Below are positions 386 to 53,590 of a DNA stretch of 64,000 bases, one piece after another (position 1 is the first letter of the stretch; every line of letters begins with the position of its first letter). The DNA comes from Candidatus Moraniibacteriota bacterium (GTDB lineage Bacteria; Patescibacteriota; Minisyncoccia; Moranbacterales; UBA2206): NCBI GenBank assembly GCA_049303905.1, contig JBAQNP010000039.1:36682-100681 (forward strand), read 5' to 3'. A program made the position numbers and the translations under genes. The notes under the pieces were generated by a model. The model had not been told where the DNA came from and did no database searches. It saw nothing but the letters and a program-made list of their open reading frames with translations.

Positions 386-398
386 TTAATTTCTATTA

Positions 399-433
399 CA
401 TGTTTTATGTTATATGTTTCATGTTTCATGACT
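399..433. repeat. Heptad (CATGAAA)n-like element, copy 1, immediately 5' of the GT4 start codon
   Basis: Minus strand reads GTCATGAAACATGAAACATATAACATAAAACATG (7-nt period). It is about 85% identical to the copy at 24064-24126. Confidence 0.55.
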
Positions 434-5262: not shown

Positions 5263-6383
5263 AAAAAATACTTTTAGTAACAAGACCAATTGCCCCACCC
5301 TGGGACGAAGGTTCGAAAAATTTTGCTTTTTATTTGGCAAAAAATATTCAAAACGAAAATTTGGAAATTAATTTAATGGGGAAGAACGATTTATCTGATT
5401 TGCCAGAAAATGTCCGCCTTCATAAAGTCTATACAACTTCTGAAATTTACCAATTTAATTTTTTGCAAAAACTTCGCGCCCTTCTTTTTCAATTCAAAAC
5501 CAAGGGCCAGTTTGATATTAATCACTATTTTTTCACTCCGACAAAACTCAATTCATTTCTCATTAAATATTTTCTGAAATCTAAAAAAACCAAAACTGTC
5601 CAAACTATCGCCTCTCTTCGTGATGATCTTTGGTCATCGGATGATATCAAAAAACTTATGTTTGCCGATCTCATCATCACCTATTCTGATTATGCTAAAA
5701 ATAAACTCGGGCTTTTGGGATTTCAAAATGTCAAAAGAGTTTACCCGGGAATTGATTTGAAAAAATATCAACCGCAAGAAAAAAACCTTGAACTTATGCA
5801 AAAAAATAATATCTCAAAGGATGACTTTGTGATAAATTTTTCCGGCGAATATGTGCGCCTCGGGGCAATTGATTTGATTATTGATAGTTTTATTGAAATT
5901 TCTAAAAAAATTCCCGAGGCTAAATTAGCTTTAGCAGTCAGAATTAAAAACGAAAAAGACGCTCAGAAAAAAGAAGCGGTCATGGAAAAAATCAAGAAAA
6001 ATAATCTTCTGGAGAAAGTTTCCTTTTTTGATGATGGGAAATATAATATACTGGAAGTCTACAATCTCTGCGACATCAGTCTTTTTCCAGTGCAAAATAT
6101 GCACGGAAAATTTGACATTCCCCTAGCAGTCATTGAAGCAATGGCCTGTGAAAAACCAGTCATTTTTTCAGACCTAGAAATTTTAAAAGAATTGGGAAAG
6201 AATGATAATTCTGTTATAATTGAAAAAGATAATCAAAAACAATTAACTAATGCGATTTTTGATTTATATCAAGACAAAGAAAAGCGCGAAAGATTAGGAA
6301 AGAATGCCAGGAAATATGTCCAAGAAAATTTCGATATTCAAAAAATCGCTGGAATTTATGAAGAAATTTATAAAACTTTATGA
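5259..6383 (+). CDS. GT4 family glycosyltransferase
   Basis: C-terminal LAVIEAMACEKPVIFSD...NARKYVQENFD, typical GT4. The start overlaps the previous stop by 4 nt. Confidence 0.75.
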   Translation: MKKILLVTRPIAPPWDEGSKNFAFYLAKNIQNENLEINLMGKNDLSDLPENVRLHKVYTTSEIYQFNFLQKLRALLFQFKTKGQFDINHYFFTPTKLNSFLIKYFLKSKKTKTVQTIASLRDDLWSSDDIKKLMFADLIITYSDYAKNKLGLLGFQNVKRVYPGIDLKKYQPQEKNLELMQKNNISKDDFVINFSGEYVRLGAIDLIIDSFIEISKKIPEAKLALAVRIKNEKDAQKKEAVMEKIKKNNLLEKVSFFDDGKYNILEVYNLCDISLFPVQNMHGKFDIPLAVIEAMACEKPVIFSDLEILKELGKNDNSVIIEKDNQKQLTNAIFDLYQDKEKRERLGKNARKYVQENFDIQKIAGIYEEIYKTL

Positions 6384-7708
6384 AAAAATATACCCTAGAA
6401 AATATTTCGCCTAACAAAAAAAGTTTTCAAACGGAAAAAATGAAAGTGCCGGCTATTTTGTTTTCCGGTGAAAGAGATTTTTCGCAGAGCGATGTTTTGG
6501 AAAAAGTTGAAGCCATAGCAGAGAGAAAAAATGTTTTTGAAAATATTGCCGTTCTTAGTGAAGCGCACACTAAACCAAATATTGAAAACCCGACTGGTTC
6601 CGTGGTCGCTTCAGAAAACATAATTCCGGAGATGATTGATGCCGCCACTAATTGCGGAATGCGAATTATTTTGACCGATCTAAGTGAAAATGAATTAACC
6701 GCACACAACATAGAAAATCTTTTCTCAGAATTCAAGAAGAATATTCCCTCAAAAAAAATAATCGGTACAAAAATTTCCAAACAGATGGTAGCAGATATTT
6801 TTCAATTCGGTAGCAAAGCTCTGGAAAAAGTTTTCTTAATTAACACAAAAAATGAATTTGAAAATACTTTTTCTCAGGGTAATTTTTTTGCGGACAAAGA
6901 GATATCCTCAGAAGAAATATCCGGCGCTGTTCCAAGGATTGTTTCTTGGATTGCCAAATTTCGATTGGGACTCCTTGGAGCAACCAATAGCCATTTTATT
7001 TATCTTATGAAAGTTTCTTCTATTGAAGATGAAAATTTAGCTAAATTACTTGGAGTTAAAAAAGATCAATATTTATTTTTTATGCACACCGGCTCAAGTA
7101 TTGTCGGACGATACACTGCTTCGCTTTATACCAAAAGAAAAATCAAAAGCTTTTCCCAAAAAATAATTCTCTTTTTGATAAGATTATTCTCCACTTCAAT
7201 TGAAAAAGATAACCGCCAGAAAATTACTACCGCCTTTCGTGCTACAGGAAACTATGGCTTTGCTAATCGAACGCTAATAACTTGCGAGATCCACACGGCT
7301 TTGGAAAAAATATTTGCTAGAACAGTTTCAACTGAACTTCTCTATGACGCTCCCCATGTCTATTTTGAAAAAGAATCACATTTTGGAAAAGAAGTCATTA
7401 TTCATCGAAATGGCGCTAATCGAGCCCTTGGGCCTTCAAAAATGGCTCTTCATGCGGTTTTTTCTCAAACTGGCGAACCAGTGCTGATTGCCCCCTTTGC
7501 CAAGAAAATTGCCTACATTGGAGTTGGGACCGATCAAAATGAAGAAACGTTTTTTTCCGCTAATCATGAAATTGGAAAAATAAAAGAATTGCAAATTCCA
7601 GAAGAAAAATCCCTCGAATACGCTGAAAAAATAGTTAGTGAAATGGAAAGAAATAAAATAATAAAATTAGTGGCAAAATTAGAAACGGTAGAAATTTTAA
7701 CATACTAA
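6380..7708 (+). CDS. rtcB: RtcB-family protein (RNA 3'-phosphate ligase family), divergent active-site motifs
   Basis: Motifs align to RtcB: ATNCGMR (cf. DI/NCGxR), GATNSHFIY (cf. GSGNHF), FMHTGSS (cf. HSGSRG), GNYGFANR (cf. NYAxANR), YDAPHVYFEKE...IIHRNGANRA (cf. YDxxHN...VHRKGATRA), and a C-terminal IIKLVAKLE tail. The canonical STCHGAGR reads SANHEIGK. Confidence 0.65.
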   Translation: MKKYTLENISPNKKSFQTEKMKVPAILFSGERDFSQSDVLEKVEAIAERKNVFENIAVLSEAHTKPNIENPTGSVVASENIIPEMIDAATNCGMRIILTDLSENELTAHNIENLFSEFKKNIPSKKIIGTKISKQMVADIFQFGSKALEKVFLINTKNEFENTFSQGNFFADKEISSEEISGAVPRIVSWIAKFRLGLLGATNSHFIYLMKVSSIEDENLAKLLGVKKDQYLFFMHTGSSIVGRYTASLYTKRKIKSFSQKIILFLIRLFSTSIEKDNRQKITTAFRATGNYGFANRTLITCEIHTALEKIFARTVSTELLYDAPHVYFEKESHFGKEVIIHRNGANRALGPSKMALHAVFSQTGEPVLIAPFAKKIAYIGVGTDQNEETFFSANHEIGKIKELQIPEEKSLEYAEKIVSEMERNKIIKLVAKLETVEILTY

Positions 7709-7713
7709 AAATA

Positions 7714-7862
7714 GGACTTACACATTTGATTGTGGAAAAGATATTAACGCAGTCGCCAGAAAAATATTTTCATGTAAACAATCTCTAATTACTGGCAAAT
7801 TATTAAATTTTATAATTACTTTCGCGACGAGCATATCTTGACGCAAGCAAATGTGTGAGTCC
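7714..7862. mobile_element. 149-bp MITE-like element with 15-bp terminal inverted repeats
   Basis: GGACTTACACATTTG (7714-7728) against CAAATGTGTGAGTCC (7848-7862), 14 of 15 complementary. Flanked by a TAAAATA-like direct repeat (7706-7713 and 7863-7870); AT-rich interior. Confidence 0.4.
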
Positions 7863-7871
7863 TAAAATAAC

Positions 7872-8504
7872 ATGAAATTAATCACGATCTCCGGCCTGGA
7901 TGGCTCTGGAAAATCCACCCAAATAAATCTGCTAAAAAATTATCTCGAATCGCAAAATAAGCGGGTCTTTTATTTTCATGCCATAGAATTTGGCATTGCC
8001 AAAAAAATTGTCAATTTTCGAAATAAGTATTGCCTGATTTGCCGCTTAACTGGAAAATGCAAAGTTTACAAAGAGAAAAGCGTCACTCATGCCAATTGGT
8101 TTCAAATATTTCTAAGAAAGATATTTTTAAAAATTGACATTTATCGTTTTGAAAAATTATATAAGAAATTAGAAAAAGAAGGTTTTGATTACATATTGAG
8201 CGATAGGTTTTTTCATGATTCAATTATAAATATTTGGTATTTAGAAAATTCTAAAATTGAAAATTATGAATTAATTGAAAATTTAAAATTGAAAATTGAA
8301 AATTCTAGATTATTTTATCTCCAAACTGATCCAGCGACTATAATGTCTCGCGAGCGAAAACCCGATCAAGGAATTGCATATCTTAAGAAGAAAAAAGAAT
8401 TATACGAAACAAAAATCTCTGCTTGGAATATAAAAACCATTAATGGCAACAGAAACAAGGAAGAAATTTTTGAAGAGATAAAAAAAATGATAGACCACTT
8501 ATGA
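7872..8504 (+). CDS. thymidylate-kinase-like P-loop nucleotide kinase
   Basis: ISGLDGSGKSTQ P-loop of the Tmk type and an LSDRFFHDS (DRY-like) motif; 210 aa. Confidence 0.55.
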   Translation: MKLITISGLDGSGKSTQINLLKNYLESQNKRVFYFHAIEFGIAKKIVNFRNKYCLICRLTGKCKVYKEKSVTHANWFQIFLRKIFLKIDIYRFEKLYKKLEKEGFDYILSDRFFHDSIINIWYLENSKIENYELIENLKLKIENSRLFYLQTDPATIMSRERKPDQGIAYLKKKKELYETKISAWNIKTINGNRNKEEIFEEIKKMIDHL

Positions 8505-22322: not shown

Positions 22323-23660
22323 TTATTTATTAAACGGCCGGCCGATTGAGTGATATTCAAAACCAAGCTCTTGCATTTTTTTCGGGTCATAGAGAAGACG
22401 CCCATCAAAAATCAGTGGCTGTTTCAATCTTTTTTTCATTTCAGAAAAATCCGGGGTGCGAAAATCTTTCCATTCGGTGATGATGAGCAGGGCGTCAGTT
22501 CCGCTAAGCGCCTCGTATTTGTTCTCAAAATAACTAATGGCCGGATTATCGCCAAAATATTCCGGGGTTTTTGCCATCTTCATCGCTTCCGGATCATGGG
22601 CTTGAATTTTTGCACCTTTTTCAATTAATTTATTTATAATAGTAATGGCCGAAGATTCGCGCATATCATCTGTCCCAGCCTTAAACGCCAAACCCCAAAC
22701 GGAAAAAATCTTATCTGCCAAATTTTCTCCTAAATTTTCCAAAACCATATCAGCCAAAACATGTTTTTGTTTTTCATTAGTTTTTAAAGTTTGTAAAAAC
22801 ATCTCTGCTTCATAACCAAAATCTTTGGCAATCTTCACTAAAGCTTTCACGTCTTTCGGAAAACAACTTCCACCAAACCCAGGACCGGCATACATAAACG
22901 GCTCGCCAATTCTTGGATCAGCGCCAATAGCTTTTCTCACTAAATCAAAATCCGCCCCTACTCGCACACAAATGTTGGCTAATTCATTATTCACTGAAAT
23001 TTTCGCCGCTAAGAAACTATTGGCCGCATATTTGACTGTTTCTGCTGTTTTTGGATCCATGGCGTAAAAACGGCCCTCCCGACGCATAAAAGGCGCGTAC
23101 AGCTCTTCCATGGTTTTTAGCACCTTCTCATCATCTGCCCCCACTACAATGCGACTAGGCTCTAGAAAATCTTTCACCGCCGTTCCTTGTGCCAAAAACT
23201 CTGGATTACTCACTACATGAAAAGAAATATCTACTCCTCTTTTTTCTAGCTCTTCAGAAATAGTTTTTTTGACTAGCTCAGCCGTTCCTACAGGCACCGT
23301 TGATTTATCCACGATAATGAGTTCGTGTTCCATCATTTGCCCGATCGATCTTGCCACTGAAATTACATGACTAAGATCGGCGCTTCCATCTTCATTAGGT
23401 GGAGTGCCAACAGCAATAAAAACTATTCCGCTGGAATCCAACGCATCTTTCAAATCGGTGGTAAAATGCAAAGTTTCATTTTTCAAATTTCGCGCCACTA
23501 ATTCGTCCAATCCTTTTTCATGCAATGGAACTTTTCCACTCTTAAATTGTTCCACTTTTTCCAGATTATTATCCACACAAATCACGCTGTTGCCCATTTC
23601 AGCAAAACAAGCACCCGTGACTGATCCGACATATCCAGTTCCAATAATTGCTATCTTCAT
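22323..23660 (-). CDS. ugd: UDP-glucose 6-dehydrogenase (nucleotide-sugar dehydrogenase family)
   Basis: MKIAIIGTGYVGSVTGACFAEMGN...GGSCFPKDV...family signature. The start is taken at the internal Met (CAT at 23658-23660) because the upstream 10 codons of the track ORF are the heptad repeat element. Confidence 0.9.
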   Translation of the reverse strand: MKIAIIGTGYVGSVTGACFAEMGNSVICVDNNLEKVEQFKSGKVPLHEKGLDELVARNLKNETLHFTTDLKDALDSSGIVFIAVGTPPNEDGSADLSHVISVARSIGQMMEHELIIVDKSTVPVGTAELVKKTISEELEKRGVDISFHVVSNPEFLAQGTAVKDFLEPSRIVVGADDEKVLKTMEELYAPFMRREGRFYAMDPKTAETVKYAANSFLAAKISVNNELANICVRVGADFDLVRKAIGADPRIGEPFMYAGPGFGGSCFPKDVKALVKIAKDFGYEAEMFLQTLKTNEKQKHVLADMVLENLGENLADKIFSVWGLAFKAGTDDMRESSAITIINKLIEKGAKIQAHDPEAMKMAKTPEYFGDNPAISYFENKYEALSGTDALLIITEWKDFRTPDFSEMKKRLKQPLIFDGRLLYDPKKMQELGFEYHSIGRPFNK

Positions 23661-23690
23661 GACATTCATGAAACATGAAACATGTAGCAT
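23658..23690. repeat. Heptad CATGAAA element, copy 2 (opposite orientation to copies 1, 3 and 4)
   Basis: Plus strand reads CATGACATTCATGAAACATGAAACATGTAGCAT. It lies between the ugd start and the stop of the four-helix-bundle gene. Confidence 0.55.
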
Positions 23691-23700
23691 ACAACAATAA

Positions 23701-24069
23701 TTAGGATTTATCTTCTATTCCCTTAATTGTTGTCCACAACATCGCTCCAATTTCTTCAGCTAAATTAATTAATTTTTTATAATCTTCTTCCTTAATATAC
23801 CCTTCTCTTTCTGAAAAATATAATAAATATTTTGTTTCCTTTAGTGATCCATAAGACATCTGTAAAAAATATTTCAACTGATTATCCCCTAGTCTTGCAT
23901 AACCTTCGATATAATTCAACACTACCGATAAAGATGCTCTGCGTAATTGAGAAGTAATCCCGTAAATTTCTTCTTTTGGAAAAGTTTTCGTAACTCTGTA
24001 TGAGAGATAGGCAAACTCATCTAATTTCTTTTTTAATATTTTATGAAAAGTTTCCTTATCCTGTTTCAT
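23701..24069 (-). CDS. four-helix-bundle protein (23S rRNA intervening-sequence protein family, PF05635-like)
   Basis: 122 aa; SYRVTKTFPKEE...QLRRASLSVVLNYIEGYAR...fits the TIGR02436/PF05635 pattern. Confidence 0.7.
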   Translation of the reverse strand: MKQDKETFHKILKKKLDEFAYLSYRVTKTFPKEEIYGITSQLRRASLSVVLNYIEGYARLGDNQLKYFLQMSYGSLKETKYLLYFSEREGYIKEEDYKKLINLAEEIGAMLWTTIKGIEDKS

Positions 24070-24126
24070 GTTTTTGTATTTTGTATTTTGTCTTATGCTT
24101 CATGTTATATGTTTCATGCTTCATGA
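24064..24126. repeat. Heptad CATGAAA element, copy 3
   Basis: Minus strand reads TTCATGAAGCATGAAACATATAACATGAAGCATAAGACAAAATACAAAATACAAAAACATGAAA (7-nt period). It overlaps the last codons (HEA stop) of the GT2 gene and sits directly 5' of the four-helix-bundle gene ATG. Confidence 0.55.
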
Positions 24127-25049
24127 ATCTCCTTTATCGAGTAGTTCATTCTATTTTGGCTTTTGAAATAGTTCTTGATTAGGATATCTGCCAAAAGTCC
24201 GAAAATGAAAAGCTGGATGCCGATCATAATGAAAAAAACACCTATAAGTGGCCAGATTTTATCGGAAATCGATCCGCCCATGATTTTTTCCACCACCATC
24301 CAAATTAAAATTAAAAATCCCAAGAAAGACAAGAATATTCCTGATCCGCCAAAAAGATGCAGGGGTCGGTTGGCATATTTTCCCCAAAACCAAATGGACA
24401 CCATATCCACAAAACCTTTCATTCCGCGTTTCCAATTATATTTCGTCACTCCACTAGTACGCGGATGATGTGAAACCTTCACCTCTCCGACTTTATAGCC
24501 TTGAAGTTCCAAAAGCGCCGGAATGAAGCGATGCATCTCACCAAAAAGATCCACATCTTTGAAACATTCTCGTCTATAGGCCTTGAGTGAACAGCCGGAA
24601 TCATGAATTTTGTCATGAATCAGAATTTTTCGCAATAAATTAGCGGTGCGAGAAAATATTTTTTTGCTCAAAGAATCTTTTCTTTGCCATCTCCAGCCGG
24701 AAACTATATCATAGCCCTTTTCTATTTCCGCCAAAAGCAAAGGGATATCCGCCGGATCATTTTGCAGGTCCCCGTCCATCATCACAATAATCTCACCCAG
24801 TGAATTTTTCACACCAGCATCAAAAGCAGCGGTCTGTCCAAAATTTCTTCTAAATTTGATGAGTTTGAGTGGTGTGAGTCCTTGGCAATTCTCCACGGTC
24901 TTGTCGCGTGAACCATCATCGATAAAAATAATTTCAAAACTTTTCTCTAATTTTTCACAAGCTTCTTTGATTTTTCTATGAAGCTCGCGAACATTCCCCT
25001 CTTCATTGTACAGCGGAACCACCACTGAGATTTTTTTGTTTTCTTGCAT
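24114..25049 (-). CDS. GT2 family polyprenol-phosphate glycosyltransferase (GtrB/DPM1-like) with C-terminal TM helices
   Basis: ISVVVPLYNEEGN...IFIDDGSRDKT...MMDGDLQNDP; two C-terminal hydrophobic helices. Confidence 0.8.
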   Translation of the reverse strand: MQENKKISVVVPLYNEEGNVRELHRKIKEACEKLEKSFEIIFIDDGSRDKTVENCQGLTPLKLIKFRRNFGQTAAFDAGVKNSLGEIIVMMDGDLQNDPADIPLLLAEIEKGYDIVSGWRWQRKDSLSKKIFSRTANLLRKILIHDKIHDSGCSLKAYRRECFKDVDLFGEMHRFIPALLELQGYKVGEVKVSHHPRTSGVTKYNWKRGMKGFVDMVSIWFWGKYANRPLHLFGGSGIFLSFLGFLILIWMVVEKIMGGSISDKIWPLIGVFFIMIGIQLFIFGLLADILIKNYFKSQNRMNYSIKEIHEA

Positions 25050-25153
25050 AAAAATAAAATTAAGATATTACTTATCCTCTTATGATTCAATAATACTATA
25101 ACTTTCAAAAAACGGCAATTTATCAAAATTTGCTTTTATGATATACTAAAAAA

Positions 25154-25831
25154 ATGAAAATATATATCGTTATTCCTGCTTTCAATGAAGGGAATATAAT
25201 CCAAGAGGTCATTAGAGAAATTCAAAAAGCCGGCTATGAAAAAATAGTCGTGGTTGATGATGGCAGTAGTGATGATACCTTTTCCAAGGCTCAAGAACTT
25301 TTGCCAAATACAGTTTTTCGTCATCGTCTAAATCGCGGAAAAGGCGCCGCTACTAAAACCGGCATCGAAGCGGCCAAAATTCTGGACGCTGATATTATCG
25401 TCACGCTTGACGGCGATGGCCAGCATGATCCATCTGACATTGTCAAATTGACCGCTCCGATTGAATTTGATAATTTTGATGTAGTACTCGGAACAAGACT
25501 CCTAAATCCAGAAGGTATGCCGAAACACAAAATCCTGGCTAATAAAATTGGAAATTTTTTCACTTGGTATTTCTATGGTCTTTGGGTAACCGATTCTCAG
25601 TCGGGCTTTCGCGCCTATTCAAAACGCGCCTCTGAAATAATCGACACGAAATCTGATCGTTATGAATATGAATCTGAAGTAATTCGTGAAATAAAAAAAC
25701 ATAAACTAAAATACATCGAAGTTCCCATCACTGTGCGCTACACCGAATATTCAATGGGCAAAGTCCAAAAACAAAGTTTCCTAAACGGCCTCAAAACATT
25801 ATATAAAATGGTTTGGAATATAATAAGTTAA
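25154..25831 (+). CDS. GT2 family glycosyltransferase, soluble DPM1-like (225 aa)
   Basis: MKIYIVIPAFNEGNII...VVVDDGSSDDT...LDGDGQHDP. Confidence 0.8.
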   Translation: MKIYIVIPAFNEGNIIQEVIREIQKAGYEKIVVVDDGSSDDTFSKAQELLPNTVFRHRLNRGKGAATKTGIEAAKILDADIIVTLDGDGQHDPSDIVKLTAPIEFDNFDVVLGTRLLNPEGMPKHKILANKIGNFFTWYFYGLWVTDSQSGFRAYSKRASEIIDTKSDRYEYESEVIREIKKHKLKYIEVPITVRYTEYSMGKVQKQSFLNGLKTLYKMVWNIIS

Positions 25832-25839
25832 ACTAATCG

Positions 25840-25872
25840 CAATTTTCAACTTTCAATTATCAATTTTCAACC
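25840..25872. repeat. Direct repeats (CAATTTTCAAC x2) forming the left arm of inverted repeats flanking the second four-helix-bundle gene
   Basis: AATTTTCAACC at 25862-25872 is the exact reverse complement of GGTTGAAAATT at 26383-26393. A second unit TCAACTTTCAA is mirrored by TTGAAAGTTGA at 26370-26380. Confidence 0.5.
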
Positions 25873-25902
25873 AATAATCAATTTTAAAATTATAATTTAT
25901 CC

Positions 25903-26271
25903 ATGAGCAATCAACGAGAGTATAATCTAGAAGAAAGATTGGCAGTTTTCGCTGAAAAAGTTATCGACCTCATGAAAAAACTTCCTAATAATCCCATAAA
26001 CCTCCGCATGATTCCTCAAGAAACAGCAGCAGCCGGTTCATCAGGTGCGAATTATTGCGAAGCGACGGAAGCTGAAAGCAAGAAAGATTTTATTCATAAA
26101 ATTGGGATTGTAAAAAAAGAATTAAAAGAAAGTAAACACTGGCTAAGACTATTAGCTCGAGCAAATCCAGAATTTGCAGAAGAATTCAGAGAATTATGGA
26201 AAGAAAATCAAGAATTAATTCTAATATTTTCTAAAACCCTGAAAACTTGCAGGGAAGGAAAAGAAAAATAA
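25903..26271 (+). CDS. four-helix-bundle protein (PF05635-like), second copy
   Basis: 122 aa; GANYCEATEAESKKDFIHKIGIVKKELKESKHWLRLL, typical of the family. Confidence 0.7.
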   Translation: MSNQREYNLEERLAVFAEKVIDLMKKLPNNPINLRMIPQETAAAGSSGANYCEATEAESKKDFIHKIGIVKKELKESKHWLRLLARANPEFAEEFRELWKENQELILIFSKTLKTCREGKEK

Positions 26272-26366
26272 AAGTTTCAATATTCAACCGAACAATGATC
26301 AATTAATTTTCAAGTAAAAAAACTTTCAATGATCATTGAGAATTTAAAAATTAAAAATTAATTGAA

Positions 26367-26395
26367 CGGTTGAAAGTTGAGCGGTTGAAAATTAG
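26367..26395. repeat. Right arm of inverted repeats flanking the four-helix-bundle gene; also part of a local long hairpin (26284-26375)
   Basis: CGGTTGAAAGTTGAGCGGTTGAAAATTAG. Additionally, TTCAACCGAAC (26284-26294) against GAACGGTTGAA (26365-26375) forms an 11-bp inverted repeat. Confidence 0.5.
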
Positions 26396-26430
26396 CAATC
26401 TCATTATAATAATTTAATTAAAAAAACCAT

Positions 26431-26775
26431 ATGCCTTCTATTCATCTCTACCAAATCGCCGTTATTATCGTTTCTTCCTTGATGATCTATCAAGGACTGG
26501 ATCGATATTTCAAAAAACAAAAAAATCAGTCTTTTTTGAAACTTCTCATTCGCCTGATTGTTTGGGGCGGAATGATTGCAATTGTCGTCTATCCTAAGAT
26601 AAGCATGAGCCTAGCAGAACTCATTGGCATCGAAGGCAACATCAACGCTGTGATTTTAGTCGGCTTTATCCTGATTTTCCTAATAATTTTCAAACTTTTA
26701 AATGCCATAGAAAAACTAGAACAGCAAATGACGGAACTAACTAGAAAAGATAGTTTAGAAGAGATTAAAAAGTAG
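26431..26775 (+). CDS. small 4-TM membrane protein, DUF2304-like (GT2-associated)
   Basis: 114 aa, 3-4 hydrophobic helices and a charged C-terminal tail, positioned between two GT2 genes; the family call is from memory, not from a search. Confidence 0.35.
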   Translation: MPSIHLYQIAVIIVSSLMIYQGLDRYFKKQKNQSFLKLLIRLIVWGGMIAIVVYPKISMSLAELIGIEGNINAVILVGFILIFLIIFKLLNAIEKLEQQMTELTRKDSLEEIKK

Positions 26776-26809
26776 AGAAGTTTTTAAAGTTATAAAGTTT
26801 TTAAAGTTC

Positions 26810-27580
26810 ATGAAAATATCAATAATTACTCCCAGCTTCAACCAAGCGCAATTTATTGAGCGGACAATTAAAAGTGTGTTGGAGCAAAATTATCCGGATT
26901 TGGAATATATTGTGATGGATGGCGGATCAACTGACGGCACTGTGGAAATTCTCAAAAAATATTCTGATCGCATTATTTGGAAATCAGAAAAAGACCGAGG
27001 ACAATCCGATGCGATAAACAAGGGTTTGAAAATTGCCACTGGTGACATTGTCGCCTATCTAAATTCAGATGATACTTATGAACCGAAAGCTCTGCAAAAA
27101 GTGGCCGATTATTTTTCGCGCAATCCAAACTCAAAATGGGCATACGGAAAATGCAAAATTATCAATGCTAATGATCAAGAAATTAGAAAACCTATCACTT
27201 GGTATAAAAATTTTCTGTTAAAAAAATATAGCTATTCTAAACTACTCTGCGAAAACTTCATCTCCCAGCCTGCGGTCTTCTGGAAGCGCGAAATTCATTC
27301 TGAGTTGGGTTTTTTCAATGAAAGCGAGCACTTTTGTATGGACTATGAATTTTGGCTTAGGATCGGCCGAAAATATCCTGCCGGAGTCATTAATGACTAT
27401 CTCGCAAATTTCAGGTATTATTCAAACAGTAAGTCTGGCAGTGTCAACAAAAAACAATTTCAAGATGAACTCAGATTGGCCAAAAAATTCGGCGCTGGTT
27501 ATCCCCTCTTAATTTTTTTGCATAAAATTAATTATTATAAAATAACAGGAATATATCGAATCTTGAATTTATTTCAATAG
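26810..27580 (+). CDS. GT2 family glycosyltransferase
   Basis: ISIITPSFNQAQFIERTIKSVLEQNYPDLEYIVMDGGSTDGT...GQSDAINKG...LNSDD. Confidence 0.8.
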   Translation: MKISIITPSFNQAQFIERTIKSVLEQNYPDLEYIVMDGGSTDGTVEILKKYSDRIIWKSEKDRGQSDAINKGLKIATGDIVAYLNSDDTYEPKALQKVADYFSRNPNSKWAYGKCKIINANDQEIRKPITWYKNFLLKKYSYSKLLCENFISQPAVFWKREIHSELGFFNESEHFCMDYEFWLRIGRKYPAGVINDYLANFRYYSNSKSGSVNKKQFQDELRLAKKFGAGYPLLIFLHKINYYKITGIYRILNLFQ

Positions 27581-27588
27581 TTATCTTA

Positions 27589-28713
27589 TTAGGCTATAAA
27601 ATCCAAGTAGTTTTCCTTAGTTATCACTTCAAAAGAAGCGGTCGGATAATTTTCCTTCCATTGAGATGGAGCTTTAGTATTTTTATCGGAATATTTTATT
27701 TCATATCCAAAAAGTTTTCCTTCTCTTTCTTCGACAATATCAACCTCTTGTTGTTGCCAGGTTCTCCAGAAATAAACATTAGCGGATATATCCTCATAGG
27801 AGCGTTTTTTCAATCGCTCCATAAAAACAAAATTTTCCCAAAGAGCGCCAATGTCATTTCTAAGTGGCAACTCATTAAAATTCGCGATGATGGCATTACG
27901 GATACCATTATCATAAAAATAATATTTGCTTTTCTGTGTTATCTCATCGCGCAAATTTCCACTATATCCACGCACATTCAAAAGAACAAATGATTTTTCA
28001 AAAAGATCAAGATAGCGCGCCACGGTTTTCGTGTTAATGCCAACCTTTTGCGCAAGTTCCGACAGTGAAACTTCATTTCCAATTTGGAAAGCAAGTAGAC
28101 GCAAAAGATCTAGAAGAATTTTTGAACTTTTTACTTTTTCTAATTCCAAAATATCTTTGAGTAAATAAGAATGAGCTATTTCTTCAGCCATTTTACGCTT
28201 AAGATCGTTGGTTGCCCTAGTCATTACCTTAGGATAATTTCCATAAATCAATTGTTGTTCCAATTTTTCCTTTAGATCGAAATTATTCAAGGTTTTTTTG
28301 AGCTCAAGTTGAGAAATTGGAAAAAGTGAAAGAGTTTGTTTTCTGCCTGTGAGGGGTTCGCCTATTTGACCGGCTAGTTCGAAAGATGAAGATCCAGTAG
28401 CGATAAGGCGGATACCAGGAATATTATCCACAATTATTTTAAGCACCATACCTATATTAGGAATGCGCTGAGCTTCATCGAAAGCGATAACATCATAACC
28501 CTTAGCAAATTCTTTTATTGTTTCAAAATCAGCCGATCCCAATTCTTGAATGCGAGTATTATCTCCATTTTCATAACGCCATTTCAGTTGAGTGCGAGCT
28601 AGAAAATTTTTCACTAAAGTCGTTTTTCCTACTTGGCGAGGACCATAGATAACTAATACTTGATTGGGTTCAAGCATTTTTTCGATTTCATCATAGATTC
28701 TTGCGATTTTCAT
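27589..28713 (-). CDS. AAA family ATPase (AAA_14 + DUF4143-type)
   Basis: VIYGPRQVGKTTL Walker A and VIAFDEAQRIP Walker B; the C-terminal region is typical of the DUF4143 ATPase family. Confidence 0.7.
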   Translation of the reverse strand: MKIARIYDEIEKMLEPNQVLVIYGPRQVGKTTLVKNFLARTQLKWRYENGDNTRIQELGSADFETIKEFAKGYDVIAFDEAQRIPNIGMVLKIIVDNIPGIRLIATGSSSFELAGQIGEPLTGRKQTLSLFPISQLELKKTLNNFDLKEKLEQQLIYGNYPKVMTRATNDLKRKMAEEIAHSYLLKDILELEKVKSSKILLDLLRLLAFQIGNEVSLSELAQKVGINTKTVARYLDLFEKSFVLLNVRGYSGNLRDEITQKSKYYFYDNGIRNAIIANFNELPLRNDIGALWENFVFMERLKKRSYEDISANVYFWRTWQQQEVDIVEEREGKLFGYEIKYSDKNTKAPSQWKENYPTASFEVITKENYLDFIA

Positions 28714-42403: not shown

Positions 42404-44329
42404 TTGGCAAAAGGATTAAAATATGCTAAAATTAAACATATGGAAATAAAAAAATTAAAAAAGAGACTTTTCTTTCTTTCGTTTTTTGTTTTTAATTTGG
42501 TTTTTTTATTTGGAAGTCAATTTTTAAAAGTAGAAGCGACTTACTCTTCTGAAGGGATTGGTTTTTATGCGCAAACAAATTCTTTTGGATATACTGCTGA
42601 GGGCATTGCATTTTATACTTACACATCCCAAGTGGATGAAACATTGCCGGTATATAGATTTGTTAATTCAACTAGCGGAGACCATTTTTATACTGCATCG
42701 GAAAATGAAAAAACAGCCGTATTAAATAATCCTCAATGGGGATATACAGCAGAAGGAATTGCGTTTTATGTTTACACATCCCAAGTGAATGAAACATTGC
42801 CGGTATATAGATTTGTTAATTCAACTAGCGGAGACCATTTTTATACTGCATCGGAAAATGAAAGAAATTCTTTAAACAACAATCCTCAGTGGGGATATAC
42901 GGGAGAAGGAATTGCATTTTATGTATTTGACACACAGTTAGCAACAACATCTCCCGTTTATAGATTTTATGCTCCATCTACCGGAGATCATTTCTATACT
43001 GCTTCAGAAAGCGAAAAAAATAAATTAACTCTGTCTCCTGTTTATAGATTTTATGCTCCATCTACCGGAGATCATTTCTATACTGCTTCAGAAAATGAAA
43101 AAAGCATCGTAACAAACACATCCCAAAGCGGATATTTGCCTGAAGGTATAGCGTTTTATGCGTATACCACACAATTCAATGGGACTGTTCCAGTTTATAG
43201 ATTTTATGCTTCATCTACAGGAGATCATTTCTATACTACTTCGGAAAGCGAAAGAGATTCCCTAAATAATAATCCTCAATGGGGATATACCGCCGAAGGT
43301 ATAGAGTTTTATGCATATACCACACAAGCTGACGGAACCGTTCCGGTTTATAGATTTTATGCTCCATCTACCGGAGATCATTTCTATACTGCTTCAGAAA
43401 ATGAAAAAAATAATCTACTACTCTCTGAGTTAGGACCAGAAATTCCCGTTGGACTTTGGAACTATGGGTCCAGAACAGCTTTAAAGGATGATCCTTTCAA
43501 AATCAGTGCCAACAAAGCATACAATATAAAAAATAGAGATGGAAATATAGTTGCTCAAATAGATGGAGGCACACAAACTAGAGTGACTTATGACAGCGAT
43601 TCATATCTCAAAGCTTATGGTTCAGTTTCTGAAACAAGATCCAAAAATGTTTTCTATTTTGACGCAGTTGACGGTGACAATTCAACTTTGATTTTTGATG
43701 TCAATCGTCCAAGCTCCACCTATGACCAATATCGCGGAAAAATAAAAATCCAATATACCGACAGTGCCAACCTTTGGGTCATTAATACCCTACCATTAGA
43801 ACACTATGCTTGGGGCGCAGGAGAATTTACTGGAACCGGACCAGCGGAGCATAGCAAAGTAATGTCAACTATCTTTAGAACCTACGGCTACCAATATATA
43901 TCCTGGACTTCAACCATCTATGTTCCCTATGGATTTAGAATTAAAAGCGATTCCGGCAATCAAATTTATCGCGGTTATGATTGGGAAACGACCTATCCCA
44001 ATGTGAAAGTTGCCGCTCAAGCCACGCGCGGAGTTATTGCGACCTATAACGGTGATGTCGCTCTCACTCCATACAGTTCTTGGAGTGATGGCAGAACCAG
44101 AAGTTTTGAAGAAAGATGGGGATCGAAGGATTATCCTTGGTGTCGATCAGTTTCTGATCCCTACGGAAAAAACTCAACCATGACCACAAAGCAATTGGAA
44201 GATGCTGGTAATCATATGGTTGGACTCATTGCCAATGGATCTTTGAATCTCGCTAATAATCATAATTGGGATTGGCAAAGAATAATGAAATATTACTATA
44301 CCGGAATTTCCCTTAACACGGCCTACTAA
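42404..44329 (+). CDS. secreted protein: about 7 tandem 50-aa YRF...GDHFYT repeats + C-terminal SpoIID/LytB domain
   Basis: Repeats GYTAEGIAFYVYTSQVNETLPVYRFVNSTSGDHFYTASENE. The C-terminus LEHYAWGAGE...FRTYGYQY...QIYRGYDWE...YSSWSDGRT fits SpoIID/LytB. The likely true start is the internal Met at 42440 (signal peptide). Confidence 0.65.
   Translation: MAKGLKYAKIKHMEIKKLKKRLFFLSFFVFNLVFLFGSQFLKVEATYSSEGIGFYAQTNSFGYTAEGIAFYTYTSQVDETLPVYRFVNSTSGDHFYTASENEKTAVLNNPQWGYTAEGIAFYVYTSQVNETLPVYRFVNSTSGDHFYTASENERNSLNNNPQWGYTGEGIAFYVFDTQLATTSPVYRFYAPSTGDHFYTASESEKNKLTLSPVYRFYAPSTGDHFYTASENEKSIVTNTSQSGYLPEGIAFYAYTTQFNGTVPVYRFYASSTGDHFYTTSESERDSLNNNPQWGYTAEGIEFYAYTTQADGTVPVYRFYAPSTGDHFYTASENEKNNLLLSELGPEIPVGLWNYGSRTALKDDPFKISANKAYNIKNRDGNIVAQIDGGTQTRVTYDSDSYLKAYGSVSETRSKNVFYFDAVDGDNSTLIFDVNRPSSTYDQYRGKIKIQYTDSANLWVINTLPLEHYAWGAGEFTGTGPAEHSKVMSTIFRTYGYQYISWTSTIYVPYGFRIKSDSGNQIYRGYDWETTYPNVKVAAQATRGVIATYNGDVALTPYSSWSDGRTRSFEERWGSKDYPWCRSVSDPYGKNSTMTTKQLEDAGNHMVGLIANGSLNLANNHNWDWQRIMKYYYTGISLNTAY
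42575..43420. repeat. approximately 150-bp tandem DNA repeats (about 7 copies) inside the repeat-protein gene
   Basis: For example, 42640-42715 and 42790-42865 are nearly identical at the nucleotide level (TGAAACATTGCCGGTATATAGATTTGTTAATTCAACTAGCGGAGACCATTTTTATACTGCATCGGAAAATGAAA). Confidence 0.7.
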
Positions 44330-53541: not shown

Positions 53542-53590
53542 ATGTTTTATTGTTTCATGTTTCATGCTTCATGTTTCATGATACATGATT
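53539..53590. repeat. Heptad CATGAAA element, copy 4, spanning a GT4 stop / epimerase start junction
   Basis: Minus strand reads ATCATGAAACATGAAGCATGAAACATGAAACAATAAAACATATG. It encodes the GT4 C-terminus ...IMKHEA-stop and ends in the epimerase ATG. Confidence 0.55.

Follow-up and report, generated by a model that had tools for sequence, protein, structure and literature searches.

The stretch of DNA analyzed here, 64,000 nucleotides of contig JBAQNP010000039.1 from a Candidatus Moraniibacteriota bacterium (assembly GCA_049303905.1; hereafter the window, GC content 33.5%), includes a cluster of glycosyltransferase genes in which two small open reading frames (ORFs) encode four-helix-bundle proteins of the PF05635 family. 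The one of main concern, gene 2, lies between genes for a family 2 glycosyltransferase (GT2) and a DUF2304 membrane protein, and forms with its flanks a self-contained unit of ~555 bp whose ends are mirror-image arrays of ~7-nt repeats (CAAYTTT); gene 1, on the opposite strand, has a cassette of its own with a different heptamer (Table 1). An earlier reading made from the sequence alone had delimited the gene-2 element and proposed that both genes are bounded by inverted repeats and are mobile. Its interval for the element was essentially that found by comparison with other genomes, where homology is limited to 25840-26394.

The gene-2 5' array has a period of 7 and 4.4 copies according to Tandem Repeats Finder (TRF; 25840-25870), and degenerate heptamer units run on past it to ~25885; no Shine-Dalgarno-like motif is visible in the leader that follows (25873-25902). 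The core of the 3' array (26362-26393) reads TTGAACGG TTGAAAG TTGAGCGG TTGAAAATT, the reverse complement of the 5' units. Two pairs of 11-mers are exact inverted repeats: AATTTTCAACC (25862-25872) with GGTTGAAAATT (26383-26393), and TCAACTTTCAA (25846-25856) with TTGAAAGTTGA (26370-26380). The sequence-only reading had described these as inverted repeats flanking a 369-bp ORF; the ORF, which matches PF05635 and TIGR02436, and the pairs are real, but the pairs are the tips of inverted ~7-nt tandem arrays and not isolated 11-mers. A third pair that it listed as an 11-bp repeat, TTCAACCGAAC (26283-26293) and GAACGGTTGAA (26364-26374), had been placed one base off, and is complementary only over the 8 bp of TTCAACCG/CGGTTGAA, the reverse complement of TTCAACCGAAC being GTTCGGTTGAA.

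Both words of this third pair do lie within a long downstream hairpin, as had been noted: 49 nt of heptamers in direct orientation (26272-26320) pair with the 3' array, giving imperfect arms of 37 nt (26277-26313 and 26344-26380) that are 73% complementary, and the 3' region (26272-26400) folds with z = -3.9. The same 49 nt are unmatched by BLAST in L110, as they are in L001 (homologous loci in other genomes are designated by L numbers). Minimum free energy (MFE) and centroid folds agree in joining 25839-25851 to 26383-26397 and 25860-25872 to 26368-26380, so that the gene-2 ORF is enclosed (z = -2.9).

A single perfect 11-mer was considered as significant in its own right and rejected (P ~0.08 in shuffles); the longest inverted repeat between the two gene-2 flanks is 11 or more with P = 0.08 over 2000 dinucleotide shuffles. 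A gapped inverted-repeat (IR) score from flank to flank puts the two PF05635 genes at the top of 49 genes of the window, with 41 and 40, ahead of a next-best 33. The proposal of inverted repeats around both of them is supported. The sequence-only reading had also allowed that the repeats might be explained as a simple transcription terminator. This did not stand up: between 23500 and 26900 no intrinsic-terminator-like site was found, where shuffles give an expectation of 2.2, and no T-run follows the gene-2 downstream hairpin. Promoter-like matches around the cassette are at chance level (14, for a shuffle expectation of 12.1).

Table 1. Features of the two four-helix-bundle cassettes, their host genes, and related solo arrays (positions within the window).
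Feature	Position	Strand	Remarks
Upstream host gene, GT2 glycosyltransferase	25154..25831	+	PF00535 E 1.3e-23; co-directional; stop codon 8 nt before cassette
Whole gene-2 cassette	25840..26394	+	5' array, leader, four-helix-bundle ORF, 3' region, 3' array
5' terminal inverted array	25840..25872	+	CAATTTT CAACTTT CAATTAT CAATTTT CAACC; period 7
A/T-rich leader, 5' array to start codon of gene 2	25873..25902	+	
Gene-2 ORF, PF05635/TIGR02436 four-helix bundle	25903..26271	+	369 bp including stop codon; 122 aa
Heptamers in direct orientation (CAATATT CAACCGA...)	26272..26320	+	49 nt; present in window, missing from L001 (alignment indel)
3' terminal inverted array	26344..26394	+	TRF periods 8 and 15
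Downstream host gene, DUF2304 membrane protein	26431..26775	+	PF10066 E 1.2e-17; co-directional
Second cassette, gene-1 element	23661..24131	-	ORF 23701-24069, PF05635
Gene-1 5' arrays	CATGAAR units 24088-24131; TACAAAA units 24070-24091	-	TRF period 7 at 24095-24125
Gene-1 3' array	TTTCATG units 23661-23697	-	
Solo CATGAAA array, without ORF or partner arm	396..430	-	10 nt upstream of minus-strand gene start; TRF period 7
Solo CATGAAA/CATGAAG array	53542..53587	-	Junction of GT1 gene and epimerase gene; TRF period 7, 5.4 copies

At the protein level, family membership is clear for both genes. Gene 2 matches PF05635 (E 2.6e-12, 47.3 bits, cutoff 33.8) and TIGR02436 (E 4.5e-18, 65.5 bits, cutoff 24); for gene 1 the corresponding matches (E 2.4e-28, 98.9 bits, and 101 bits) are likewise above the curated cutoffs. 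By sequence, gene 2 finds Protein Data Bank (PDB) entry 2RLD with E 4e-12. Its AlphaFold model (mean predicted local distance difference score, pLDDT, 93.3) has four helices, at residues 9-26, 31-55, 60-87, and 89-118, and template-modeling (TM) scores of 0.81 to 2RLD, 0.80-0.82 to 2GSC, and 0.71-0.74 to Avd (4DWL). Solved relatives among the S23p/Avd-like four-helix-bundle proteins are pentamers. The gene-2 ORF is under strong purifying selection: its protein is 100% identical to that of L001, a sister genome (Candidatus Moranbacteria UBA4824), with 12 synonymous and no non-synonymous codon changes between them. Synonymous divergence (dS) between the two is 0.18 for gene 2 and 0.44-0.72 for five flanking genes (Fisher p = 8e-5). 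Carriage by phages was considered and rejected: no relative turned up among viral contigs, the four-helix-bundle proteins have no PADLOC match, and in PHROG only gene 1 has a match, a weak one to Avd (PHROG 3206, E 4e-7).

The gene-1 cassette has arms (23661-23697 and 24088-24131) that are 84-87% complementary over 30-31 nt, and here too MFE and centroid folds enclose the ORF, with a closing stem of ~20 bp (z = -3.3). The GT2 gene upstream of it ends within the cassette, its last codons and stop (24114-24116) lying inside the 5' arm. Each cassette occupies a short spacer within a glycosyltransferase operon and points in the sense direction. A search of the window for the CATGAAA-type pattern gave 13 matches, for 0.65 expected. 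Solo arrays of this type, with neither partner arm nor ORF, lie at 396-430 and 53542-53587, each directly before the start codon of a minus-strand gene; in the first, 25 of 26 nt agree with the gene-1 cassette's 5' arm. Either array could be what a lost cassette left behind, or could have inserted on its own.

Heptamers that contain ATG also leave a trace in gene annotation. The UDP-glucose dehydrogenase (UGDH) ORF next to cassette 1 (22323-23690, minus strand), if called mechanically, starts inside the cassette's 3' arm and is thereby extended by MLHVSCFMNV; MKIAIIG, at 23660, is the start that L001 shares. Similar spurious N-terminal extensions (MSNAKIQMPNE...) are found in many homologues, and the cassettes and ORF-less hairpins are a likely source of mis-called start codons, as for the window's UGDH.

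The sequence-only reading had suggested cassette-like mobility, with a search for other copies and for empty sites as ways to examine it. Other copies were found: proteins 74-91% identical to gene 2 occur in at least six unrelated gene contexts, within the same cassette, and homology ends at the outer ends of the repeats. In BLAST comparisons of window positions 25701-26500 to L110, L115, L116, and L108, similarity extends from 25841-25848 to 26393-26394. In junction alignments the termini, (A)ATTTTCAAC... and ...GTTGAAAATT, are conserved, and sequence beyond them cannot be aligned; the 3' end ...GAGCGGTTGAAAATT is kept in L110 and L116, and in L115 with one substitution (GAGCGGTTGATAATT). The element is taken to be 25840-26394 because similarity in unrelated contexts stops at these ends.

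Empty or otherwise-occupied sites were also found, for both cassettes. At the GT2-DUF2304 junction, relatives with 60-72% GT2 identity have plain spacers of 2-31 nt, the uninterrupted state, and GT2 orthologues in L081-L099 adjoin DUF2304 without the gene-2 cassette. Several other inserts occupy this junction: in L082-L084 (84-89% GT2 identity) there is an ORF-less hairpin of ~95 nt made of inverted AAAGTCCAT 9-mer units (L082 and L083, the two that were folded, give z = -4.7 and -5.5); in L081 and L087 (90-94%) an 82-nt ORF-less inverted array of CGAAT-type heptamers; and in L085 a different four-helix-bundle cassette (49% amino acid identity) with AAATTTT-type arms. In the occupied site of L001, the 5' arm and leader have no differences to the window in 63 positions, and substitutions resume 1-3 nt outside the arm (25837, 25839). 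Cassette 1 is absent from L001, where a spacer of ~58 nt has a solo (ATTCGTA)5 array instead, and from L085, whose spacer retains a CATGAAG array and an ATTCGTA array; the corresponding GT2-UGDH junction of L096 and L120-L127 (other Moranbacteria) does have it, with varying numbers of units. These comparisons show that the gene-2 cassette is a discrete mobile unit, which close relatives have gained, lost, or exchanged for something else at operon junctions.

Neighboring operon junctions also have a different kind of cassette, likewise flanked by inverted repeats. GxxExxY genes (TIGR04256, PD-(D/E)XK-like) were found in L001 (5842-6321), L081 (1087-1566), and L115 (1092-1445), in the last directly after a four-helix-bundle cassette. 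In L001 and L081 they are at the junction following DUF2304, with inverted units of CACATGATT / AATCACGTG type, where the window has a 34-nt spacer; this spacer, between DUF2304 and the next GT2 gene (26776-26809), consists of AAAGTTTTT 9-mers.

The inverted-array architecture is general for the PF05635 family across phyla. Scanning a single genome for each species yielded 557 relatives, and the 80 best loci were retained; their hosts are Patescibacteria, Planctomycetota, Desulfobacterota, Chloroflexota, Nitrospirota, Zixibacteria, and Cloacimonadota, and the GC content of the contigs is 32-68%. Most are in metagenome-assembled genomes, and finished plasmids agree with them. The median flank-IR score is 42.5 for 78 four-helix-bundle loci and 18 for 433 other genes of the same loci (Mann-Whitney p = 2e-38). 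Of the 78, 95% are above the 95th percentile of the controls, and several of the best-scoring "controls" turn out to be further four-helix-bundle genes or to lie right beside one. Autocorrelation is 0.57 and 0.55 in the arms at lag 7, compared to 0.23 in coding sequence, and 0.49 compared to 0.25 at lag 14. The median arm is 39 nt long, or ~5.6 units, and the median element spans 475 nt.

The units themselves differ between loci (AATTTTC, AATTTCT, AAATGAC, AATGACG, and others), and alignments inside the arrays are ambiguous by a register of 7. Those of the gene-2 subfamily follow a loose C-N-A-A-T-N-N on the sense strand upstream, with an approximate fit for Coxiella, but a universal heptamer consensus was tried and fails for gene 1 (CATGAAA) and for the cyanobacterial TAGGGTG and AAGGGAA; only the period of 7 is general. 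Within a single element, the order of variant units in one arm can be mirrored in the other, over 57 nt with three mismatches in L080 and at 28 of 28 positions in L024. By simple ORF calling, the upstream neighbor is co-directional with the four-helix-bundle gene in 73 of 75 loci, and both neighbors are in 58 of 78. Four finished cyanobacterial plasmids all have the gene in the same direction as its neighbors; clear inverted heptamer arrays are present on two of the four, from Calothrix (TAGGGTG) and Geminocystis (AAGGGAA), and a partial array flanks the gene on a Nostoc punctiforme plasmid. For ORF-less arrays with a cassette's own heptamers, a comparison of rates in the same locus (0.96 compared to 0.66 sites per 10 kb, p = 0.32) carries no information on enrichment, because heptamer types are shared between loci.

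The favored reading, to which a probability of roughly 60% is assigned, is that the stretch 25840-26394 is a single copy of a small cassette, selfish or mobile, that belongs to the intervening sequence (IVS) type and here lives in an mRNA operon. It would consist of a promoter-less ORF for the PF05635 protein and inverted ~7-nt arrays acting as terminal inverted repeats, inserted in sense orientation into the short spacer between the presumably co-transcribed GT2 and DUF2304 genes. Transcription would be by read-through from the upstream gene, and in the resulting transcript the arms could pair to form a duplex of 26-40 bp around the ORF; the computed energy of the arm duplex averages about -35 kcal/mol across loci. 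Such a duplex would be a plausible substrate for RNase III, as demonstrated for the 23S rRNA IVSs of Coxiella and Leptospira, which have an identical architecture, and cutting might release the cassette RNA from the polycistronic message. No RNase III gene lies within the 64-kb window. By analogy with Avd, the four-helix-bundle protein could be the element's own factor, recognizing the repeat arrays.

Several observations weigh against this reading. Mismatches between arms are G·U-compatible in 85 cases and A·C in 95 (p = 0.50), that is, with no wobble bias, and duplex energies are much the same for sense and antisense strands (-35.1 and -36.0 kcal/mol, p = 0.22). Arm pairing therefore looks like repeat identity at the DNA level rather than selection for a sense-RNA helix; selection of the latter kind had been considered and was dropped on these two null tests. 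The arms can decay while the gene stays: in L001 the 3' arm is 16% diverged and has the 49-nt indel, and in L125 the 5' arm is nearly gone. On the PCC 7120 plasmid, one of the four cyanobacterial examples, the arrays are not complementary. Six junction pairs yield no consistent target-site duplication, with boundaries that are A/T-rich and uncertain by 1-3 nt, and a Pfam scan of the cassette and of window ORFs of at least 100 aa found no transposase, integrase, or reverse transcriptase. Extra constraint, instead of recent transfer, could account for the cassette's lower dS, and the counts of neighbor orientation depend on naive ORF calling. Lastly, RNase III cleavage, read-through, and binding of the arms by the protein are deduced by analogy.

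Some of these points would suit a non-autonomous transposon similar to a miniature inverted-repeat transposable element (MITE), in which the arrays would be terminal inverted repeats for a transposase encoded elsewhere, the four-helix-bundle gene cargo without a role in mobility, and the RNA hairpin incidental. A discrete unit with conserved termini (AATTTTCAAC... and ...GTTGAAAATT) in unrelated contexts, inverted-array hairpins without an ORF at the same junctions, solo arrays of the same heptamer elsewhere in the window, and arm complementarity that behaves as DNA-level identity, without G·U bias, are all as expected of one. A single trans-acting transposase fits poorly, however, with heptamers that differ as widely between cassettes as CATGAAA and CAAYTTT do within the window while keeping their period of 7; neither a target-site duplication (in the six junction pairs, within the same 1-3 nt uncertainty) nor a transposase domain (in the ORFs of at least 100 aa over 64 kb) was detected; the near-absolute sense orientation (73 of 75) is atypical for DNA transposons; and the arms have a single protein family as their unvarying partner, from bacteria of the candidate phyla radiation (CPR) to Planctomycetota and cyanobacteria. 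An element of this kind is a serious candidate but an unlikely one. Ordinary sequence, whether a terminator or attenuator or chance matches in low-complexity DNA of 33% GC, is scarcely credible: a perfect 11-mer does turn up in 8% of shuffles, and the window is indeed at 33.5% GC, but the scan of 23500-26900 found no terminator-like site and the hairpin is not followed by a T-run, the two top IR scores among 49 genes of the window belong to the four-helix-bundle genes, 78 homologues from genomes with 32-68% GC show the feature in 95% of cases, and the boundaries of homology match the repeats, so that the comparative data contradict it.

The arrays could conceivably also belong to the host, as intercistronic RNA elements of the STRR type (short tandemly repeated repetitive), with hairpins that stabilize or process operon mRNA or couple translation and that arise by slippage; the small ORFs would then spread by homologous recombination in the flanks, in the style of free-standing homing genes, rather than by transposition. 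Hairpins of 7-bp STRRs between co-transcribed cyanobacterial genes are known (PMC2670836). In the window, solo arrays are directly upstream of start codons; heptamer copy number differs between orthologous cassettes; dS at this conserved site is lower for the cassette than for the sequence on either side; and several different inserts occupy the same junction. Flank-dependent homing cannot, however, yield the same cassette with both arms between unrelated genes, nor does independent slippage yield the mirrored order of variant heptamers in L080 and L024, and this explanation is considered improbable. More improbable by far is an integron-type gene cassette with an attC hairpin, or a switch inverted through its flanking repeats. 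In its favor are a promoter-less ORF, closely packed and in sense orientation, and the words GTTGAGC and GTTGAAC of the 3' arm, which by coincidence conform to GTTRRRY, the consensus for the integron core; flanking inverted repeats could in principle mediate inversion. The repeats are nonetheless on both sides of the ORF, not at a single 3' attC; CTAATTT, CGAATGA, and TAGGGTG of other members do not fit the cores (GTTRRRY and RYYYAAC); the cassettes occur singly, dispersed among housekeeping genes, and no integrase was found in window ORFs of at least 100 aa; and the near-invariant orientation (73 of 75) speaks against frequent inversion. As identities for the element, an integron cassette, a diversity-generating retroelement (DGR), and a terminator were rejected, given arms on both sides, no reverse transcriptase or integrase in window ORFs of at least 100 aa, and no terminator site in 23500-26900.

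Apart from the cassettes, the window has several other repeats and unexpected genes. Eight copies of GAAAATT, the complement of the unit AATTTTC of gene-2 arms, lie in frame (8244-8304) in a thymidylate-kinase-like ORF (7872-8504), adding approximately ENSKIENYELIENLKLKIENS to the protein. Just before this ORF, a 163-nt intergenic region (7709-7871) with no ORF and no Rfam match is closed by a near-perfect 16-bp inverted repeat, AGGACTTACACATTTG ... CAAATGTGTGAGTCCT, and is preceded among the glycosyltransferase genes by a homologue of the RNA repair and ligation enzyme RtcB (6380-7708; E 1e-48). AAGTAGA heptamers (2874-2905) are found at the 3' end of an ORF (1771-2889), and 153-nt tandem coding repeats (42587-43413) correspond to DUF5648 domains of a 641-aa protein, in which there is a SpoIID domain as well. 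An ATPase with AAA_14 and DUF4143 domains (27589-28713, minus strand) is antisense within the glycosyltransferase cluster and matches the PADLOC candidate defence family PDC-S01 (E 1e-142); a similar ATPase follows the four-helix-bundle cassette in L116.

Among known systems, no literature was found on PF05635 cassettes flanked by heptamer arrays outside rRNA, or linking STRRs to PF05635 genes, older subscription journals being outside the coverage of the search. The Correia elements of Neisseria are MITEs with no ORF and no transposase inside, found in either orientation, with a duplicated TA target and one conserved repeat sequence; their hairpin is transcribed together with neighboring genes and is cut by RNase III. 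They share with the window cassette its short intergenic form, its terminal inverted repeats, and the lack of an internal transposase, while the cassette differs in its conserved ORF, strict sense orientation, variable period-7 arms, and lack of a detectable duplication.

Avd, the accessory protein of DGRs, forms pentamers that bind a structured RNA in cis, encoded next to its own gene (bioRxiv 10.1101/2023.10.23.563531). The fold is shared (TM 0.71-0.74 for the gene-2 model, as above), and gene 1 has weak matches to NF033474 (E 1.9e-6), PHROG 3206 (E 4e-7), and the bAvd-like PF22296 (E 1.1e-8). The NF033474 match has 28.1 bits, however, for a cutoff of 80, and gene 2 matches no Avd model; the window includes none of the DGR partners (reverse transcriptase, template repeat, or variable-repeat target).

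Cyanobacterial STRRs form 7-bp-unit hairpins between co-transcribed genes, for example hupS and hupL, with a proposed effect on transcript stability or translational coupling (PMC2670836). The ORF-less inverted arrays of L081-L084 look like these hairpins of 7-bp tandem units, and on the Calothrix and Geminocystis plasmids inverted heptamer arrays are directly beside four-helix-bundle genes. STRRs have, however, been described as gene-free and specific to filamentous cyanobacteria, whereas arrays of the window type bracket a conserved ORF and travel with it, in CPR bacteria, Planctomycetota, Desulfobacterota, and others.

The closest parallels are with IVSs of 23S rRNA genes. That of Coxiella has an S23p ORF, a stem of 28 bp formed by terminal inverted repeats, and tandem heptameric GACAGAT repeats just upstream of the ORF; it is excised by RNase III, with cleavage at the first repeat (PMC4990558). 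ORFs of the 23S_rRNA_IVP type occur within rRNA insertions of CPR bacteria (PMC11270868). As in the window, a PF05635/S23p protein is encoded in the loop, in sense to host transcription; the element, of ~430-560 nt, is closed by terminal inverted repeats (28 bp in Coxiella, 26-40 bp here); heptamers lie right upstream of the ORF, the Coxiella GACAGAT becoming, if rephased, CAGATGA, one base from the CAAATGA common among homologues; and distribution is sporadic, with ORF-less versions as well (PMC4990558, PMC11270868). The window cassette is between protein-coding genes of a glycosylation operon rather than in an rRNA gene (helix 9, 25, or 45): no Rfam family was found in the window at the gathering threshold, and no universal rRNA motif in loci L001-L119. 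Cutting by RNase III would here sever an mRNA, whereas rRNA fragments stay together in the ribosome. The window element thus lacks the 23S rRNA location by which IVSs are defined; the other IVS features examined match.

The nature of rRNA IVSs and S23p proteins has been a question since the early 1990s, as has the meaning of the STRR heptamers of cyanobacteria. It is possible, though rather doubtful at present, that PF05635 genes with inverted period-7 arrays make up a single pan-bacterial class of autonomous mobile elements, with ORF-bearing and ORF-less rRNA IVSs, STRR-type hairpins, and orphan four-helix-bundle genes as its various states. The pentamer would recognize arrays of ~5-6 units per arm and drive or maintain insertion without a classical transposase, and the GxxExxY cassettes could be a second cargo or engine. 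In CPR polysaccharide gene clusters, cassettes and ORF-less hairpins contribute to a rapid turnover between genes. If a unit of ORF and inverted heptamer arrays does live in ordinary operons of many phyla, thousands of unexplained "four helix bundle protein" annotations would gain a context, the problem would become testable in tractable organisms such as Nostoc, and the rRNA IVS would be one habitat of a general mobile cassette.

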